A stretch of 26,776 nucleotides of DNA, taken from the IMG/VR virus record IMGVR_UViG_3300037258_000549, positions 64,001 through 90,776 of that record; one strand, given 5' to 3'. Numbering within the stretch: the stretch's first letter is position 1; each line of letters opens with the position of its first letter. A program made the translations under genes and the position numbers. Positions 1 to 25,117 of this stretch are shown piece by piece. Source of the stretch: a virus (Duplodnaviria > Heunggongvirae > Uroviricota > Caudoviricetes). The notes under the pieces are model-generated. The model did not search any database, was not told where the DNA came from, and saw only the letters and a program-made list of their open reading frames with translations.

Positions 1-15
1 CGCCGCCTCCTCCCT

Positions 16-204
16 CCGGGTGCGCCCGGCTGGCCTTCCCAGTCCGGCCGAGCGCACGTAGTTCTTGTTAAGGGCACCTGGCCTGCATACCACTCCTTAC
101 CGAGGAAGGAGCGTGGGCTCGGCCAGGTGCCCGGCTTATGCACGGCGACCGGATAGTCAGCAAAGGTTTGGTGGGTGTCGCTGGTTAGGCGGACCACCAT
201 CTTA
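16..204 (-). ncRNA. Candidate structured RNA or long structured 5' leader
   Basis: Nested inverted repeats: 43-50 with 146-153 (one G-U on the minus strand), 52-56 with 139-143, a perfect 12-bp stem 72-83 with 121-132, inner stem 93-98 with 106-111, and small hairpins at 16-29 and 30-42. It lies downstream (minus strand) of the conserved element at 175-204. Confidence 0.4.
175..204 (-). promoter_or_regulatory. Conserved 30-nt element, copy 1 (TAAGAT -10-like box plus conserved downstream leader)
   Basis: Minus strand TAAGATGGTGGTCCGCCTAACCAGCGACAC matches 4960-4989 (+) at 27/30. A weak -35 (CTGATA) lies 17 nt upstream. Confidence 0.5.
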
Positions 205-223
205 TACTTTTACGGACGCCCTA

Positions 224-1318
224 TCAGCTCACCAGCGCAACCTCGCGTGCCAGCACCGCGGCCTTCGCCTTCATCGGCTCGGCGCGCAGCAGTGAGCGGT
301 TCAGCTTGCTTTCCCAGCTGCGGCTCGTACGCACATGATCTAGGTACTCACCAGCCGCTTGCAGCATCCCGTAGGCGGTGCCGCGCACCCCGCTGCCCTC
401 GACCGTCGGCCCCTCCAGGAAGCCCAGCACCGCGGCGCGGGCCTCGGCGATGTTTTTCGCCACCCGGTCTGAGACCAGGCCGTCCGGCGGGGACGGGATG
501 AACGCGTCCACGAACCGTGCTTCCTGCTGGACGCTGACCTTGATGCCGAGCAAGTCGGTCATCGCTGCCACGTACTCCTGCGTCTGGGTGCACGCGTACA
601 TCAGCGCCTCGCGTGCTTCGCCCATCCGGTCATGCCAGTCGCTGCGGTGCGAGAACGAGTACACGAGCCCGGTACGCTCGCCCTCAGCTTCGGCAGTCGA
701 ATAAGTATTCGCGCAAACGATCCTAACCGTGGTCAGCCGGGCGGCGCAGGAGGCCTGGCCGTCGTGCGAGCTGGTGAGCCCGAGGAACGGGAAGGTCAGT
801 GAGCCGTCGCCGGGCAGCTGCACCGGCTCGTTGATCCGGGCCAGCATCCACACCTTGCGGCCCCCGGCCAGGCTGCCGCCGGTTTCCAGTTGCACCGTGC
901 CCGGCTCGGCTTCCAGGATGGAGTCGATGATCTCGCCGAACGCGGAGTTGGGAATGATGTTGTAACTGCCCCGCTGGTAAGACAGTGTCGCCCGGGTGTC
1001 ACTGCGCGCGATGCGCCGGAACTCCCGGTCGGTACGCAGTGACTTCTCGTACAGGTCACTGAGCGCCTGGGCGGTCTCCTCGACTGTCTTCAGCGGTGAC
1101 TCGCGGACCAGTGTCAGGATCTGCTCGCGGACCTCCCCGACGGTCAGCAGCCGCTCGGCGGCCGGCAGTGCGATCGGGTCCCAGTCCAGTCCGGCCAGCA
1201 CGCGCGCCGCGGCAAAGGACTCCGGGTAGTCCGCGGTTACCGTCGTGCGGTCACCGGTCCGCGGCTTGTGCCAGGGCATTTCCCGGACACTGAACATTCT
1301 TTCGACGTCATCACTCAT
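224..1318 (-). CDS. DUF932-family (TIGR03299-like) phage/plasmid protein
   Basis: 364 aa with hallmark motifs MFSVREMPWH, AGLDW, ETGGSLAGGRKVW, SHDG, TTVRIVCANT and GTAYGMLQAAGEYLDH. Confidence 0.85.
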   Translation of the reverse strand: MSDDVERMFSVREMPWHKPRTGDRTTVTADYPESFAAARVLAGLDWDPIALPAAERLLTVGEVREQILTLVRESPLKTVEETAQALSDLYEKSLRTDREFRRIARSDTRATLSYQRGSYNIIPNSAFGEIIDSILEAEPGTVQLETGGSLAGGRKVWMLARINEPVQLPGDGSLTFPFLGLTSSHDGQASCAARLTTVRIVCANTYSTAEAEGERTGLVYSFSHRSDWHDRMGEAREALMYACTQTQEYVAAMTDLLGIKVSVQQEARFVDAFIPSPPDGLVSDRVAKNIAEARAAVLGFLEGPTVEGSGVRGTAYGMLQAAGEYLDHVRTSRSWESKLNRSLLRAEPMKAKAAVLAREVALVS

Positions 1319-1391
1319 TGCTGCTGCTACTTTCGCTGGATGGTACGCCCGCTGGCGGCGAAAACCTCTTCACGCCATTAGGGTATCACTT

Positions 1392-1400
1392 AGTATAACA
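1392..1400 (-). promoter_or_regulatory. Extended -10 promoter element for the DUF932-like gene
   Basis: Minus strand TGTTATACT (TGn-TATACT) about 75 nt upstream of the start, in an AT-rich divergent intergenic region. Confidence 0.45.
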
Positions 1401-1631
1401 AAGTGGCTGCCAATCCGATTCCCGTTACTCGCGGGTAATTTAAACATTTAATTCGAAAAAGTATTCTAATTACTATTTGCACGAGCGAGGGCTTGAAGTT
1501 TTGGCACGGACGAGCCGTCGCTGTTGTACAACCCGTCGGTACCTGCGTATGGTATCAGTCGGTATTACACTCCGTCGAGTGCAGGAACATCTGCAGTCGA
1601 AGACCAGTGATAACAGGACAGGGGGAAGTAA

Positions 1632-2222
1632 ATGCGCGGTAGGACAAAGGTCGCGGTGAGTGCCGTGGGCCTGCTGGCGGTGACCAGCCTGGCAGCAGCT
1701 TGCTCGTCGAGCACGAGCAGCACGAGCACGCACAGCACGAGCAGCTCCAGCCCGGCCAGCATGTCCGGCACGGAGACGTTCAGCGGGACCGAGCAGCTGA
1801 CGAAGGCGCAGGCGGCCAGTGACAGTTACGTTCCGGTCATCACGTTGCACGCCACCGGGGTGTTCGCCGATACCGGGTCGATCGCCCTGGTCCCGGGGTC
1901 CGGAAAGGACGGCAACGGCCCCGGCCCGGCGACCATCAAGCTCAGTAAAGGGAACATCAACGTCACGCACGCGGCGACGCCCGCCAATGAGCAGCCGACG
2001 CTGATCAGTGGATGCCAGTACGGCATAACTGATCGCGTTGGGTACACGATGACAAGCGGGACTAAGGCCTACGCCGGCGCGGTCGGCAGCGGCACCGCCA
2101 CGGTCAAGGAGGACTTCACCGTGCCGAAGCTGGCCAGCGGCAAGTGCAATATGACCAGTAACGCGGTGCCGACCGGCGGAACAGTCACGTTCACGGCTAC
2201 CGGACCGGTGAAGCTCCGGTAG
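1632..2222 (+). CDS. Secreted lipoprotein with Ser/Thr-rich linker and beta-rich domain
   Basis: Basic N-terminus, hydrophobic stretch, lipobox LAAA-C, then SSSTSSTSTHSTSSSS. Two later Cys. Purine-rich SD-like sequence upstream. Confidence 0.8.
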   Translation: MRGRTKVAVSAVGLLAVTSLAAACSSSTSSTSTHSTSSSSPASMSGTETFSGTEQLTKAQAASDSYVPVITLHATGVFADTGSIALVPGSGKDGNGPGPATIKLSKGNINVTHAATPANEQPTLISGCQYGITDRVGYTMTSGTKAYAGAVGSGTATVKEDFTVPKLASGKCNMTSNAVPTGGTVTFTATGPVKLR

Positions 2223-2799
2223 AAGCAGCTGGACGAGGACGGGCTGGTCCCGGGTGTCCTGGGGCTAGCCCGTCGTCGGCTGAACGAGGGACTAGCTCAG
2301 CTGCTTGACTATCTTGGGATCGTTTAGCTCGCAGGGTGATCGTCAGGCACCGCCGGTGGTACGGGACGAGGTTCTCCACGGCGGTGTTACGCCGGTCGCC
2401 GTCGCGGCGGGCGAGCACCAGGTAGTCCCGGTCACCGCGGTTCCCCTCTAGCCGGGTCGGGGTACCGCAGTACGCGCAATCGTAGGGAGGAGAAACGGCG
2501 TGCAAGAACTGCACCCGATGCTTCTCTATAACGACAGGGCGCGCCTGGCGGCCACCCCGGTGCCGGGCGCACCGGCAGTTCGGCGGGCATTTCGGCATCT
2601 TCCAGGCGTTGTGCTTTCCGCAGGTGCAGTCCGGCTCGCACGGCGGCAGGTCGTGCTTCTTGCAGTGGCAGCCTTCCGGGCAGGGCGCGCCCTGGTGCCG
2701 CTTGCAGGTGCAGCCCGGCTCGCACGGCGGCGTCTGGACACGGCGCAGCGCGGGAGCTGTGTGCCTGCGGCACTGGCAGCCGGGCATGCACTTTCTCAT
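2197..2799 (-). CDS. Cys/His zinc-binding repeat protein with degenerate HNH-like C-terminal domain
   Basis: Five C-x3-C-x-C-x2-H repeats, then CAYCG...LARRDGDRRNTAVENLVPYHRRC, which resembles an HNH fold lacking the catalytic His. Confidence 0.65.
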   Translation of the reverse strand: MRKCMPGCQCRRHTAPALRRVQTPPCEPGCTCKRHQGAPCPEGCHCKKHDLPPCEPDCTCGKHNAWKMPKCPPNCRCARHRGGRQARPVVIEKHRVQFLHAVSPPYDCAYCGTPTRLEGNRGDRDYLVLARRDGDRRNTAVENLVPYHRRCLTITLRAKRSQDSQAAELVPRSADDGLAPGHPGPARPRPAASTGASPVR

Positions 2800-2805
2800 T
2801 TTGTT

Positions 2806-2834
2806 AGGTTAGATCAGCAGTAGCTTGCTGGCTA
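2806..2834 (-). promoter_or_regulatory. Probable leaderless promoter for the Cys-repeat gene
   Basis: Minus strand TAGCCA-N17-TAACCT-N6-ATG with no SD sequence; leaderless mRNAs are common in Actinobacteria. Confidence 0.45.
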
Positions 2835-2889
2835 CCCCGTTCTGGGACCAACTGTCGTACCGCAATGTGATCACCTGATTACAGAAAGT

Positions 2890-3141
2890 CTAGCACCTGT
2901 TCTCCAGTGCCTGATTATGAGCGCGCACAGCTTCCGCAGCCAGCGCCGGCGTCTTGAAGACCGCAATCTCAAAGTCGTACTTGTAGGACGCTGGTTCATT
3001 AAGCGCCGCGTAGACGTTGCACGGTTCCTGGTGCCCCTGCCGCCAGGGCAGTTCACACAGCTTCGCCGCGGCGGCCTGCAATGAGCCGTACGCGCGCTGT
3101 AGGTTAACGCGGGCGACTGACAGAGCGGTAGCATCCATCAC
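2890..3141 (-). CDS. Small phage hypothetical protein
   Basis: 83 aa; start overlaps the glycosyltransferase stop (GTGATG). The WRQG...VY...IAVFKTPALAAEAVRAHN pattern resembles small actinophage proteins. Confidence 0.65.
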   Translation of the reverse strand: MMDATALSVARVNLQRAYGSLQAAAAKLCELPWRQGHQEPCNVYAALNEPASYKYDFEIAVFKTPALAAEAVRAHNQALENRC

Positions 3142-4222
3142 GAGGTGAGGCTCTCCAAGGCTCGTAGCAAGCGCTTAGCGTTGTTAGCAAAAGTTCTATC
3201 AGCAATCGCAGCCTGCGCCAGCCGACCCGCTTCTTCGCGTTTATCACTGTTTTGCAACCACCAGCGAAGCTGCTCGGACGCGTCTTCGGGAGAAGTGAAC
3301 GTGGGCAACATGGACAGCACCCGGTCGCCTTCTTCCCGTTGATCCCTAAGGAAGGGCAGGCGGCAAGCGGCCATCTCCACCTCACGCGGCCCCATGGCGA
3401 CGGCGACGTCCCCGGCGTGCGTGTCCTCGGCCTCGCGCCGGTAGAAGTTGATGCCCATCTTCGTCTGGCGGTACAGCTCCGCCGTTTCGGTGTTATCTAC
3501 GCAGTCCGCGTCGGTCAGCCCGCTGCCGATGTACGGCACCAGCGGGGATGCCTCGGGGAGCTTACCCCACTCGTTCCCGGCGATCAGCACGTCGATATCG
3601 CTCAGGTCCAGCGCCTCGAAGAAGTCGATCCGGGACTTGAACGCGGTGCCGATGAACGTCAAGTCGATCAACTTAGCGGACGGCGGCCCGGTCCGCGGGT
3701 GGTGCACGGCCGGGCGGTAGCAGTGCGGGACGTACAGCGCCGGCGTGCCCTGCTGGTCGTAAAGAGGCAGGTTAACCGGGTCATTCAGCAGGCACAGGTC
3801 GGCGAACTGCGCGCGCAGCAGCTGAATATCCTCTTGATAGGGCGATTCCGTATTCAGCATGACGATTTTGTGCCCGCGCTTGCGGATGACTTCCATCAGC
3901 CCGGCGGTAGCAAAAAACCCGCTGACAAAAACTACCACACTTGGCCAAAACGTATAAAGCGCATGGGAGATCCCTTGCATAGCAAGGGTGAACGCGCCCT
4001 CCTGGGTCAGTGCCTGCTTGACGATCGGGAGGTCATACTCGTCTTTAGTCTGGGTGTCCATCAGGGCACGACTGTAAAAGACAAGTCGTAAAAGCCGATC
4101 ATTGAAGTTAAACGAGGCAACTTCTACTCCAGTTTCCCGGAGTCCCTCTTCCCAGCCTTTATAAACATCGTGAACTGAAAAATCGGGCGTAAAGGCCCCG
4201 GGTGAACCAACAAGATCCGCAC
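3138..4222 (-). CDS. CgeB-like (Glyco_trans_1_2) glycosyltransferase, frameshifted near its 5' end
   Basis: The body has LTFIGTAF..R, MGINFYR, MGPREVEMAAC and QLRWWL...REEAG...RTFANNAKRLL. A natural N-terminus MRILLVHPGP (GTG at 4222, SD GGAAGGGG) is in a different frame from DFSVHDVY... The ORF-track start at 4370 overlaps the HNH gene and is probably false. Confidence 0.75.
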
Positions 4223-4335
4223 GGGCGAACCACCCCCTTCCGATTACACATTCGCAAACAAAATGGTATGCTTTTAACGACCCGGTCATGCCGTTCAGAG
4301 GCAGCGACCGGGCCTGATCGCATAGAAGTGCGACT

Positions 4336-4917
4336 ATGACTGATCCTACAGAACGCTGGCGCCCTGTCAAAAACTTCGAAGGTTTCTACGAGGTTAGCAA
4401 CCTTGGCCGGGTACGGAGCGTTGATCGTACAGTAACCTCCCGTAACCGCTGGGGGCCGATAGAAAAGCACCTGCGCGGCAAGATTCTCTCTCAGGCAACA
4501 GGCAGTTACGGTTATCTAGTGGTCACCATGTCTCGCGACGGCAGGGAACGGCCTTACCGGGTGCATCTGCTTGTCGGGGAAGCTTTCCTTGGACCGCGCC
4601 CGCCCGGACACGATATCCGGCACGGTCCGAGAGGGCGCCAGGCCAACGCAGCGGCAGATCTCTGTTACGGGACGCGGGCGGAAAACGAGCAGGACAAGAT
4701 TCGCGATGGTACATTCCGACACGGTGGCGACGGCCGGGCCGGCGAGGCTGCGAACCACGTTAAGCTGACGTGGGCCATCGCCCGGGAGATCCGGCGCAGG
4801 CGCGCGGCTGGGGAACGGCCTAGTGCTCTAGCTCGGGAGTTTAATACTACTCCTTCAACGGTCTACTACATAGCTAGTAACCGGCAGTGGAAAGCAGAAC
4901 ATGATCCCCAGGGTTAG
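4336..4917 (+). CDS. NUMOD4-HNH homing endonuclease with C-terminal HTH-like domain
   Basis: ERWRPVKNFEGFYEVSNLGRVRS (NUMOD4), VHLLVGEAFLG...IRH...LCYGTRAENEQD (HNH), then IRRRRAAGERPSALAREF. Confidence 0.9.
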   Translation: MTDPTERWRPVKNFEGFYEVSNLGRVRSVDRTVTSRNRWGPIEKHLRGKILSQATGSYGYLVVTMSRDGRERPYRVHLLVGEAFLGPRPPGHDIRHGPRGRQANAAADLCYGTRAENEQDKIRDGTFRHGGDGRAGEAANHVKLTWAIAREIRRRRAAGERPSALAREFNTTPSTVYYIASNRQWKAEHDPQG

Positions 4918-4935
4918 TCACTCAAGGTAGACCGT

Positions 4936-4989
4936 TAGACGCCAGCATACGTTAAGCAGTAAGATGGAAGTCCGCCTGACCAGCGACAC
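4936..4989 (+). promoter_or_regulatory. Conserved 30-nt element, copy 2; putative promoter reading into array 1
   Basis: TAGACG-N18-TAAGAT followed by GGAAGTCCGCCTGACCAGCGACAC; 27/30 identical to 175-204 (-). Confidence 0.5.
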
Positions 4990-6262
4990 GCACCGTACCG
5001 ACGAGCCCATCCGCATCGCACCGGCCCATCCCGACGAGCCTACCCGCTTCGGTTCTGGCCATACCGACGAACCCAGCCGTTCCCGGACAGACCGCCCCGC
5101 ACCGACTACCCCTTCCTTCCCCGGTCACCCCCCGCCGACGCACCAGACCGTATCCCTCCTTTCCGCCTCAGGCCGACGAGCCACCCCGTCACGATTCAAG
5201 CTACGCCGACCACCCTGACCAGCTCACACCGACGAGTCATCCCATACCGGTTCGTCCCACGCCGACCACCCGACGCAACCCGCCCCGCCCCATGCCGACG
5301 AGCCATCCCATGCCCAGCCCCACCCAGCCCCACCGACGGACCTCACCAATCCCCACCTGACCCCGCCAAGCCACGCTGACGCATCAGCTCATACCTGCCC
5401 AGCCCGACCCGACGACCCGAACCGCGTCATGCCCGCCCGAGCCACCCTGACGAGCCACCCCATCCCGCTCCTTTCCGCATCGACAAGCTGGCCCACTACC
5501 CGAGCCATTACGTCTCCACCCGCGCCGACATGCCACCCCATCCCATACCGGCCCTGCCCAGGTGACTATCCGTCCCAACACCTCCCGCTCCCGCCCAGGC
5601 TGACGCACCAGGCCAATTCACGTCACCCCGGCCCTCGCTGACATGCCTGCCCCATCCCACACCGGCCCTGCTCAAGCCGACGAGCCGCATCGTACCTCGA
5701 CGAGCCATGCCATGCCCGTCCTCCCCCTGCCGACTACCCGAGCCATTACGTCCCGACTCCACCCCTGTCGACTACCCGAGCCATTACGTCCCGACTCCAC
5801 CCCTGCCGACTACCCGAGCCATTACATCCCGACTCCACCCCTGTCGACTACCCGAGCCATTACGTCCCGACTCCACCCCTGCCGACTACCCGAGCCATTA
5901 CATCCCGACTCCATCCGCGCCGACATGCCTACCCATCCCACACCGGCCCTGCTCAAGCCGACGAGCCGCATCGTACCCAGCCGCCCCTGCCCGCTTTGAC
6001 GACCCACGCCCAGCCAACCCCACCCACGCCGACTAGCCACCTCTTCTCTTACCAGCCCTGTTCGTGCCGACAAGCCATGCCTAGCCGCTCCCTGCCGACT
6101 ACCCAGCCCCGCCCTACCCGACCCTGCGCAGCCCAAGCCGACTACCCACGCCGACGTGCCATCCCATCCCCTGCCGCTACTTCCCATCCCGACGACCCAC
6201 GCTAACCCTGCCCGTCCCGGTCCGACTACCCGTCTCCATCCCTCCCGTCCCGCGCCGACTAG
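4981..6262 (+). repeat. Array 1: degenerate (NNNCC)n-GAC repeat array, C-rich on +
   Basis: Splitting at CCGAC/CTGAC/TCGAC gives units of 33, 33, 38, 33, 38, 33, 23, 33, ... 38, 43, 33, 38, 33 nt, e.g. gagcc catcc gcatc gcacc ggccc atccc gac. Roughly 35 units; no convincing protein in any frame. Confidence 0.9.
5730..5919 (+). repeat. Near-perfect 38-bp x5 tandem repeat inside array 1
   Basis: (C/T)CGACTACCCGAGCCATTAC(G/A)TCCCGACTCCACCCCTG starting at 5730, 5768, 5806, 5844 and 5882; the fifth copy diverges at its end. Confidence 0.95.
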
Positions 6263-6555
6263 CCCCACCAGAGGTTGCTAAGCGAATCATCTAGTTTGCC
6301 CCCGATGCCATGTCGTGCCCGGACATCGGGGGCTGTTGGCTGCCCTGTGAATGTCTCTAGCACGAGGCTGCCGACCGTTCGTGCCCGCACCCGGCCATAC
6401 TTGTAGAGGCGCACAAACCGGTAGCCAGCCGGGTTCACCTGCGGGGTGAGTAGCCCGCCGCGAGTTGCCGCCCGGCCGAGCGAGTAGATGTTCCCCCGGT
6501 CAGACGCCTCGTAAAACCCGGCGTAACCAGGGATCGGCTGCCAGTCCTCCTCCAT
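6259..6555 (-). pseudogene. Short or truncated NUMOD4-HNH endonuclease
   Basis: EDWQPIPGYAGFYEASDRGNIYS, VGSLVLETFTG...RH...SNLWWG then stop. It lacks the T-x2-EN-x2-D segment seen in the paralogs at 4336 and 18736. Confidence 0.7.
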
Positions 6556-6684: not shown

Positions 6685-7551
6685 TCAGCGGCTTTTCGCC
6701 GCACGGGCGAGCGCGGCACGCCGAGCCAGGTCCTGCTGCCGCGACACCACTTTCAGGTGCGCAGGATTTACGCAGTCGCCTCGCCCGCAAGTCTGCTGTG
6801 CGATGTAGCCATCGGGAACAGGTCCTTTAGCGAGCAGCCAGGCGACTTCCCGGGCCATGTGCGTACTGCCCTGCCACCAAGCTTTCGCACTCCCGCTACC
6901 GTCAATGAACGCTTCCCAGAGCCAGCAGCCTCGCAGCCCGGCGGACTTATCGACTTTGGCCCAGAAACGCAACTCCGCTTTTTCTGCCCAACGCGCGCGT
7001 TGGTTTTTGCCGTTTTCAGTCCGGCGCCCCGGTGGCGCACGACGCAAGTTTTCAGCCAGCGTGACTACTTCCAGGTGCGCCGGGTTAACGCAGTGCCGGT
7101 GGCGACAGCCACGTTCTCGCACGTGGTCAACCTGAAAGAGATCCGAGAGCGGTCCGATAGTGAGCTGGTAGGCGAACCGGTGAGCCAGGAATTTCCGGCC
7201 GTACGCGTAAAAAGCTCCGTAACCCTGACCGATTTTCCCAGCCGTCCACAGCCAGCAGCCCTCCGGCCCGGCCGACTTATCGACTTTGGCCCAGAAGCGG
7301 TCTTCGACGGACATCGCACGCTGCGGCTCAGTCAGCTCCGTCGAACCTCGCGTGTACCAACGCAGGTAATGCCTTGCGCACAGTCCCCGCGCTTCGTGCG
7401 GTTCGTCGCAGTCCGGCACCGTACAGCCTTCCGGTGCCGGAGCCTTCGGTGGCAAGGTGCCATGTCGGTAGGCGTACACGTAATGCGTGCCGCACAGTCC
7501 GCGCGCTTTGACCGGGCGCGTGCAGTCCGGCTCGGTACAGCTCTCGCTCAT
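6685..7551 (-). CDS. HNH endonuclease with two N-terminal Zn fingers and a duplicated HNH domain
   Basis: Two C-x4-C-x9-C-x2-H motifs and two RFWAKVDKS..GCWLW...CVNPAHL modules. The first has AHR, DH and EN; the second has ARE, QQ and QD at those positions. Confidence 0.9.
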   Translation of the reverse strand: MSESCTEPDCTRPVKARGLCGTHYVYAYRHGTLPPKAPAPEGCTVPDCDEPHEARGLCARHYLRWYTRGSTELTEPQRAMSVEDRFWAKVDKSAGPEGCWLWTAGKIGQGYGAFYAYGRKFLAHRFAYQLTIGPLSDLFQVDHVRERGCRHRHCVNPAHLEVVTLAENLRRAPPGRRTENGKNQRARWAEKAELRFWAKVDKSAGLRGCWLWEAFIDGSGSAKAWWQGSTHMAREVAWLLAKGPVPDGYIAQQTCGRGDCVNPAHLKVVSRQQDLARRAALARAAKSR

Positions 7552-24311: not shown

Positions 24312-25117
24312 GTTACATCCACCAGCCGCAGCCCGGCGTGGTCATCGCCGTGGTCGGCAGCGGCCTGGCCGGCTACCTGGTCGGCGTCGGGCAAGCTATC
24401 GCCGGGAAGCCGTCGCTGGGCACCCATGTCGTGGGAGTCACCCACCAGGACGCCAAAGGCCGGTGGATGGGCATTGAAGGGCGTCCCGGCGGCGTCGGAC
24501 TGGTCGACTGCACGCCGTACCTGGCTGACTCCCGGGCTCGCAGCAACTACCTGCAGCCTAAGCCGGACGATCACGGGCAGCTGGCCGCGTTCCTGGCCGG
24601 GGCCGCCAAGTCCCTCGGCATCGGTTACGACTGGGCAGGCATCGCCGGGGATATCGCGGACACGGTGGCACCGGACCTGTCGGCGGACATCGACCACCTG
24701 TGGCGCTGGCCAACATACAAGGGCCAGCTGCCCGGCCACGTCGTCTGCAGTTCACTATTCGCGGCTCTTTACGACCTGCCTCAAGTGGGCTGGCAACACC
24801 CTGACCTGGGGAAAGAACGGATGTGCCTGCCCGAAGCATGGTGGAACTGGTGCGACGGGGAACTCTGGGCTTCTTTAGGTAGACTGGGTGATACACGCTG
24901 CATCAGGGCAGCTAGGCAAACCCTCCCCCTCCGGCCGACTGTCCAGGCCTGGCCCAAACCGCTCCGCCCACGCCGACTAACCACGTCAGTCCCCAACCCC
25001 CCCGCCCCATGTCGACCTGCCAGACCTGGTCCCAACGGCCCGCTCCACCTCCGCCCACCCCGACTGGCCAACCCGGCCCATCCCCCTCCCGCCCTGACCT
25101 GCCAGACCCGGTCCTAA
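24308..25117 (+). CDS. Permuted NlpC/P60 (YiiX/YebB-like) papain-fold enzyme; ORF reads on into array 2
   Basis: His precedes Cys: THVVGV...IEGRPGGV...GIGYDW...VVCSSLFAALY. The domain ends near 24875; the remainder is array-derived Pro-rich sequence. Confidence 0.7.
   Translation: MSYIHQPQPGVVIAVVGSGLAGYLVGVGQAIAGKPSLGTHVVGVTHQDAKGRWMGIEGRPGGVGLVDCTPYLADSRARSNYLQPKPDDHGQLAAFLAGAAKSLGIGYDWAGIAGDIADTVAPDLSADIDHLWRWPTYKGQLPGHVVCSSLFAALYDLPQVGWQHPDLGKERMCLPEAWWNWCDGELWASLGRLGDTRCIRAARQTLPLRPTVQAWPKPLRPRRLTTSVPNPPAPCRPARPGPNGPLHLRPPRLANPAHPPPALTCQTRS

Follow-up and report, generated by a model that had tools for sequence, protein, structure and literature searches.

A 30-nt element occurring twice in the window, at positions 175-204 (-) and 4960-4989 (+), is probably the promoter plus 5' leader of a guide-RNA array of the VIPR kind, with the left copy representing such a cassette with a shrunken array. 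The window is the whole stretch of 26,776 nt analyzed here, i.e., the final 26.8 kb of the 90,776-base virus record IMGVR_UViG_3300037258_000549 (full phage record, G000; G+C content 64 %), for which base composition and homologues named in Actinomadura and Streptosporangiaceae suggest an actinobacterial host. VIPR type II was described for phage SUSP1 and comprises Vipr, vrRNA and vap (bioRxiv 10.64898/2026.04.26.720920,.720927). The element would constitute the start of a stand-alone array gene, in which a -10 box for the housekeeping sigma factor (TANNNT) is followed by a leader opening a C-rich guide precursor.

The two copies are identical at 27/30 positions (mismatches at positions 9, 10 and 19), as reported in the initial annotation, which also correctly placed each of them next to the 3' end of a gene: the left copy follows the stop codon of a DUF932 gene (224-1318, -) at a distance of 19 nt, and the right copy follows a NUMOD4-HNH gene (4336-4917, +) at 42 nt. 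A pattern search of the window allowing up to 3 mismatches detected no copies other than these two, and 100 dinucleotide shuffles yielded 0 matches. The genome-wide search for more copies proposed at that stage revealed a third one outside the window at 57075 (-) of G000, 24/30 identical and located directly ahead of a C-rich array. Five further copies were found in three related phages (two each in L211 and L212, one in L226) by searches via neighbouring genes. This form of the element, designated variant C, is thus compared on the basis of eight copies from four phages; all homologous copies were retrieved only via neighbouring proteins, and the related phages L216, L217, L433 and L434 were compared in addition. 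A 17-nt core pattern matched viral contigs 21 times, all chance-like and none with a -10 box or array, and metagenome contigs at least 120 times, those matches listed being likewise chance-like and lacking box and array. All 7 matches from a scan for the core plus an array were non-array.

The initial annotation had proposed that TAAGAT is a -10 box and that both transcripts begin with a common 5' leader, and this assignment is supported by the eight copies. TANNNT precedes the core by exactly 4 nt in 8/8 copies, compared to a background of 0.46 % for that spacing, while its inner three bases vary (TAAGAT, TATGAT, TATCCT, TAATCT, TAGCCT). Invariant columns of the alignment are the T, A and T of the box (T-A-x-x-x-T), GTCCGCC and AGC. 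In the window, the box is located at 4960-4965 (+) ahead of array 1 and at 199-204 (-) in the left copy, where it is kept in the L212 ortholog. Across all leader variants of G000 and its relatives (see below), TANNNT is found 4-9 nt upstream of 27/32 leaders, compared to 2.7 % of random positions; for G000 itself the count is 11 of 12 leader sites.

TANNNT is the -10 consensus of Streptomyces (PMC4895711), and given its fixed distance from the proposed transcript, the sequence has the make-up of a Sigma-A/HrdB-type promoter. The right copy also has a possible -35 element (TAGACG; 4936-4941, +), separated by 18 nt from the -10 box. Hexamer and spacer length are retained in L211 and L212, and the arrangement resembles the Streptomyces -35 motif TGAC with its spacers of 18-19 nt (PMC6742748). 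The likeness to actinobacterial housekeeping-sigma promoters therefore comprises TANNNT at fixed spacing as well as the -35-like hexamer upstream of the right copy, whereas ordinary promoters of this type lack a conserved leader core such as the one following here after a 4-nt gap. A generic sigma-70 scan did not detect the array promoters, since it requires a -35 match. Upstream of the right copy, a divergent -10-like TATGCT (4944-4949, -) is likewise retained in L211 and L212, directly facing a glycosyltransferase gene in the former, and in G000 the NUMOD4-HNH gene intervenes.

Four related leader variants, of which the element is one, occupy 12 sites in G000, i.e., A (6 sites), B (2), C (3) and D (1), and 11/12 of these sites head C-rich pentamer arrays. 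CGCC is common to variants A, C and D at nearly equal distance from the box, and an AYCAG-like loop to variants A, B and C. Array 2 of the window, for example, is headed by a variant-A promoter and leader (24880-24914, +). At the site orthologous to that of array 1, variant C is present in G000, L211, L212 and L226, whereas the four relatives L216, L217, L433 and L434 have variant A, so that the two variants occupy the same slot. In case of variant A, formation of a hairpin is supported by covariation: across 19 leaders, 98.9 % of cells in the 5-bp stem are paired with 7 two-sided changes, a result reached in 0/500 shuffles, with slid controls attaining at most 61 % pairing and kinship among the sequences inflating the outcome.

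The variant-C leader of array 1 (4970-4987, +) consists of GTCCGC, a 7-nt loop and GCGAC, which may form a bulged 5-bp hairpin, and its counterpart in the left copy lies at 177-194 (-), with the 3' arm decayed in the L212 ortholog. The arms are 97.5 % complementary and constant across the copies, while the loop varies between 7 and 9 nt; all changes fall into the loop or are one-sided G-U changes (three), with no two-sided change, and the predicted fold is marginal relative to shuffles (z 0.05 to -1.4). The invariance of GTCCGCC and AGC, the missing compensatory changes and the marginal fold would also suit a real -10 box followed by a DNA operator or initial-transcribed sequence, recognized by a phage regulator of the array and a few other promoters, with no RNA hairpin in case of variant C. 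A like core lacking the 3' stem arm even follows TATACT back-to-back with the left copy (203-227, +; TATACT, 6 nt, GACGCC, 2 nt, ATCAG). This variant-A-like core points antisense into the 3' end of the DUF932 gene and is also present in L212; its pattern was defined post hoc, with 0.1 expected per genome. Nevertheless, such an operator is rather unlikely, because a loop varying from 7 to 9 nt would be awkward for a fixed DNA site, the G-U tolerant changes favour an RNA formed from the C-rich strand, and variant A, with which variant C is interchangeable, has a covarying stem.

The arrays headed by these leaders number 11 in G000 and consist of C-rich pentamers ending in CC with GAC punctuation; two short ones with variant-A leaders, at G000 16742 (+) and 27884 (-), are missed by a simple repeat count (which gives 9). 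Of 180 units measured genome-wide, 119 have a length of 5n+3, and the two anchor positions are C in 82 % and 97 % of cases. Array 1 (4990-6260, +) is a VIPR-like guide array of such units; within 4998-5075 it has an early unit near-identical to one of the L212 ortholog (~1950-2000, -), and the leader-proximal units of the two arrays differ. The protein encoded at G000 2258-2980 has a predicted Csm3/Cas7-like RAMP fold (pLDDT, predicted local distance difference test, of 88 in an alignment-based model, 37 in a single-sequence model), with Csm3 and type VII Cas7 as top Foldseek matches (E ~1e-6). Its gene is part of a two-gene cassette between two arrays, and a CRISPR locus is not in evidence; the label Vipr-like is based on predicted fold and layout.

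Arrays adjoin the vipr-like gene in 52/56 related loci, and in 46 of the 52 array-bearing ones the C-rich strand has the orientation of this gene, with the array frequently placed between the cassette's two genes. Six loci are exceptions, four of them from the closest relatives, the arrays of which carry their own box and leader. This co-directionality, together with the boxes and leaders of the exceptions, indicates that the C-rich strand is most likely the array RNA with the element at its 5' end. In distant Vipr relatives (L179, L187-L188), too, arrays run opposite to vipr and are preceded by a different upstream sequence, pointing to a possible independent origin of stand-alone arrays. Within the clade of G000, arrays come and go, since L211 has no array at the site of the third copy, but a variant-C array beside a channel gene.

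Canonical vrRNAs are rich in G and carry a conserved structured tail at their 3' end, and the opposite strand of the present arrays is G-rich as well, so that the element might be viewed as the 3' tail of a G-rich vrRNA. This assignment was rejected as very improbable, because the C-rich strand is predominantly co-directional with vipr, the -10 boxes are oriented for transcription of that strand, the vipr gene is set apart from the array beside it by a hairpin and T run resembling a terminator on the G-rich strand, and the G-rich consensus is not GGY. Likewise rejected was the element as a VIPR target in autoregulation: under 12 decoding rules the best matches of array units equal those of random control windows, and the differences between elements cluster in spacer and loop instead of at every third base.

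With a phage protein of RAMP/Cas7 fold outside a CRISPR locus and non-coding repeats of 5-nt period next to vipr, G000 agrees with VIPR; the likeness extends to the two-gene cassette, the flanking position of the arrays, the strictness of the period and a conserved non-repeat element at the end. Differences concern the anchors (CC, not GGY), the GAC-punctuated units, the dispersal of arrays with their own promoters, and the conserved element itself, which is a 5' promoter-leader here and a 3' pseudoknot tail in the published systems. The G000 arrays do not follow the GGY/NN consensus, and the 3' flanks of eight arrays differ from each other, so that a conserved structured 3' tail is not present and the conserved element is the 5' one. 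Since cores other than GGY/NN are reported (10.64898/2026.04.26.720920 and a later survey), the deviating consensus excludes only the canonical VIPR type. On account of the matching fold and period and the deviating consensus and 3' flanks, the arrays are classed, from sequence and predicted structure, as a variant of the VIPR kind of system. Array promoters or 5' leaders are not described in the available parts of the VIPR preprints. Solo vrRNAs of F5 satellites and SUSP1-like phages (10.64898/2026.10.15.759431) similarly have guide genes apart from vipr and a common conserved end, but occur in genomes without a vipr of their own and share a 3' tail, whereas G000 is vipr-positive with a common 5' leader.

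As a promoter-bearing conserved sequence 5' of a guide array, the element is also similar to a CRISPR leader. It is, however, much shorter, has no evident role in Cas1-Cas2 integration, and exists in four interchangeable variants within one genome.

The left copy is directly followed by a degenerate array stub (146-176, -) composed of about 4 pentamers, a CTGAC boundary (160-156) and 1-2 more pentamers. Its array-grammar score is within the top 0.7-3 % of G000 windows, like that of the genuine array start at 52890, and the L212 ortholog scores above essentially all background windows. About 40 nt after the left copy, at approximately position 136, begins a strongly folding module of four long hairpins (136-1, -; z = -5.75), which extends 72 nt past the window edge to G000 63928, stopping immediately short of the ribosome-binding site of a small-gene operon. 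This module (window 1-136 plus G000 63928-64000) shows a few two-sided changes, is modular in relatives and represents a conserved RNA or DNA element. Neither it nor the 30-nt element had an Rfam match at gathering score, only generic hairpin matches (E up to 10) being obtained, and a 15-nt hairpin pattern retrieved no further copies of the module.

The initial annotation had tied array 1 to this structured RNA via the shared element. The connection proves weak, as the stub comes first after the left leader and the module occurs without the element in 5/7 phages: L211 has all of it, preceded by two inserted genes, L433 only hairpin 1, and L216, L217 and L434 hairpins 3-4. Leader and module are joined only in G000 and L212, with ~100 extra nt between them in L212, and the link of the element to the structured RNA is probably incidental. 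Most simply, a promoter-leader cassette would have been inserted downstream of the DUF932 gene in a common ancestor of G000 and L212, where its array was lost, shrinking to the one-unit stub, or never grew; if active, the left copy would read as an internal promoter into the older four-hairpin module and the small-gene operon.

Joint retention of leader, stub and module in both phages could alternatively reflect a functional hybrid RNA loaded by Vipr, in which the leader and a single short unit, serving as guide or decoy, are followed by the four hairpins as 3' tail. Canonical vrRNAs indeed combine repeats with a structured 3' tail, and solo vrRNAs serve as decoys (10.64898/2026.10.15.759431). 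The independent and partly fragmentary occurrence of the module, a stub of only 4-6 pentamers (9-16 in published vrRNAs) that is decaying in G000, and, in L212, the broken 3' arm of the leader and the additional nucleotides behind it render this hybrid improbable. It is equally doubtful that in this clade a sequence-specific 5' leader replaces the 3' tail as loading or processing handle of C-anchored VIPR guides and serves, in the left copy, to recruit Vipr to a non-guide four-hairpin RNA acting as decoy or in control of the operon; if true, such a conserved 5' handle would reverse the published vrRNA layout.

Several observations weigh against the element being an array promoter and leader of this kind. 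The predicted variant-C hairpin is weak and unproven, being no more stable than shuffles and without compensatory change, and the RNA may start within the proposed stem, since the first paired G follows the box after 4 nt, as compared to 6-7 nt in variants A, B and D. Moreover, the eight variant-C copies share kinship and do not count as independent, the stub reaches only moderate significance in G000, and the published vrRNAs have a conserved 3' tail instead of a 5' leader.

As a further possibility, both copies were proposed to start an open reading frame encoding a conserved leader peptide. The translations given for this, M-(V/E)-VRLTSDTH-(Q/R)-T, are correct, as is the statement that no stop interrupts the left reading frame over the 66 codons up to the window edge (in the genome it ends at 67 codons, and the right one has 84 codons). 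In addition, an in-frame ATG is present in all three G000 copies and the left L212 copy, and some of the differences are synonymous. The interpretation nonetheless fails on the comparison of the eight copies: three have no ATG at or beside the site, a fourth has ATA there and an ATG in the preceding codon, within the box, loops of 8 or 9 nt disrupt the frame in 3/8, the reading frames range from 16 to 200 codons, and no Shine-Dalgarno motif is located upstream of any copy. The Val and Arg codons are invariant at their third base, variants A, B and D apparently do the same job without an ATG, neither reading frame has a Pfam match, and neither is found among 15 billion called proteins. A conserved peptide M-x-VRLTSDTH, and with it an attenuator upstream reading frame, is thus hardly credible. 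Because start codon, frame and Shine-Dalgarno motif are not kept and the wobble sites are fixed, the ATG is a by-product of the final two bases of TAWGAT and the following G.

The 5' strand of the variant-C stem (4970-4987) contains GUCCG and a bulged C, with a paired GAC on the 3' strand, and in this respect resembles the bulged Ro60-binding helix of animal Y RNAs (GGUCCGA; bacterial GNCGAA; PMC4201824). The phage encodes Ro60 and Y-like RNAs (L002 8500-9430). The element, however, lacks the A following GUCCG (R-GUCCG-C), and neither GGUCCGA nor GNCGAA is present on its 5' strand. Since the Y-like RNAs of the phage use GGGCCGGA, the likeness may be due to chance, and the Ro60-bearing relatives use variant A; mimicry of a Ro60 site is thus a weak lead.

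With respect to the further surroundings, three NUMOD4 or HNH genes are located on both sides of array 1 (4336-4917, 6259-6555 and 6685-7551), and such genes are also found near its counterpart in relatives. About 5 kb left of the window, genes for an amber-anticodon tRNA and a tRNA-Ile are present (L001 8961-9035 and 10038-10110, -).

Taken together, arrays have probably left the vipr operon in this clade and scattered singly, each with a promoter-leader cassette of variant A, B, C or D. The leader would probably fold into a small hairpin at the 5' end, shielding the precursor from decay that starts there or labelling it for loading or processing. Sequence comparison bears out the box and its spacing, the family, the strand, the stub and the loss of the reading frame, whereas transcription and its start, the folding of variant C and the role of the leader are inferred. 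The element is then a supporting part of a recently described system, with neither a leader peptide nor an obligate link to structured RNA being upheld. It fixes the strand and the 5' boundary of the C-rich arrays, both of which are needed for expressing or decoding this VIPR variant. Beyond that, it suggests dispersed guide genes seeded by a short promoter-leader cassette, which may be copied to new intergenic sites, exchanged for other variants, and outlast the array it once headed.

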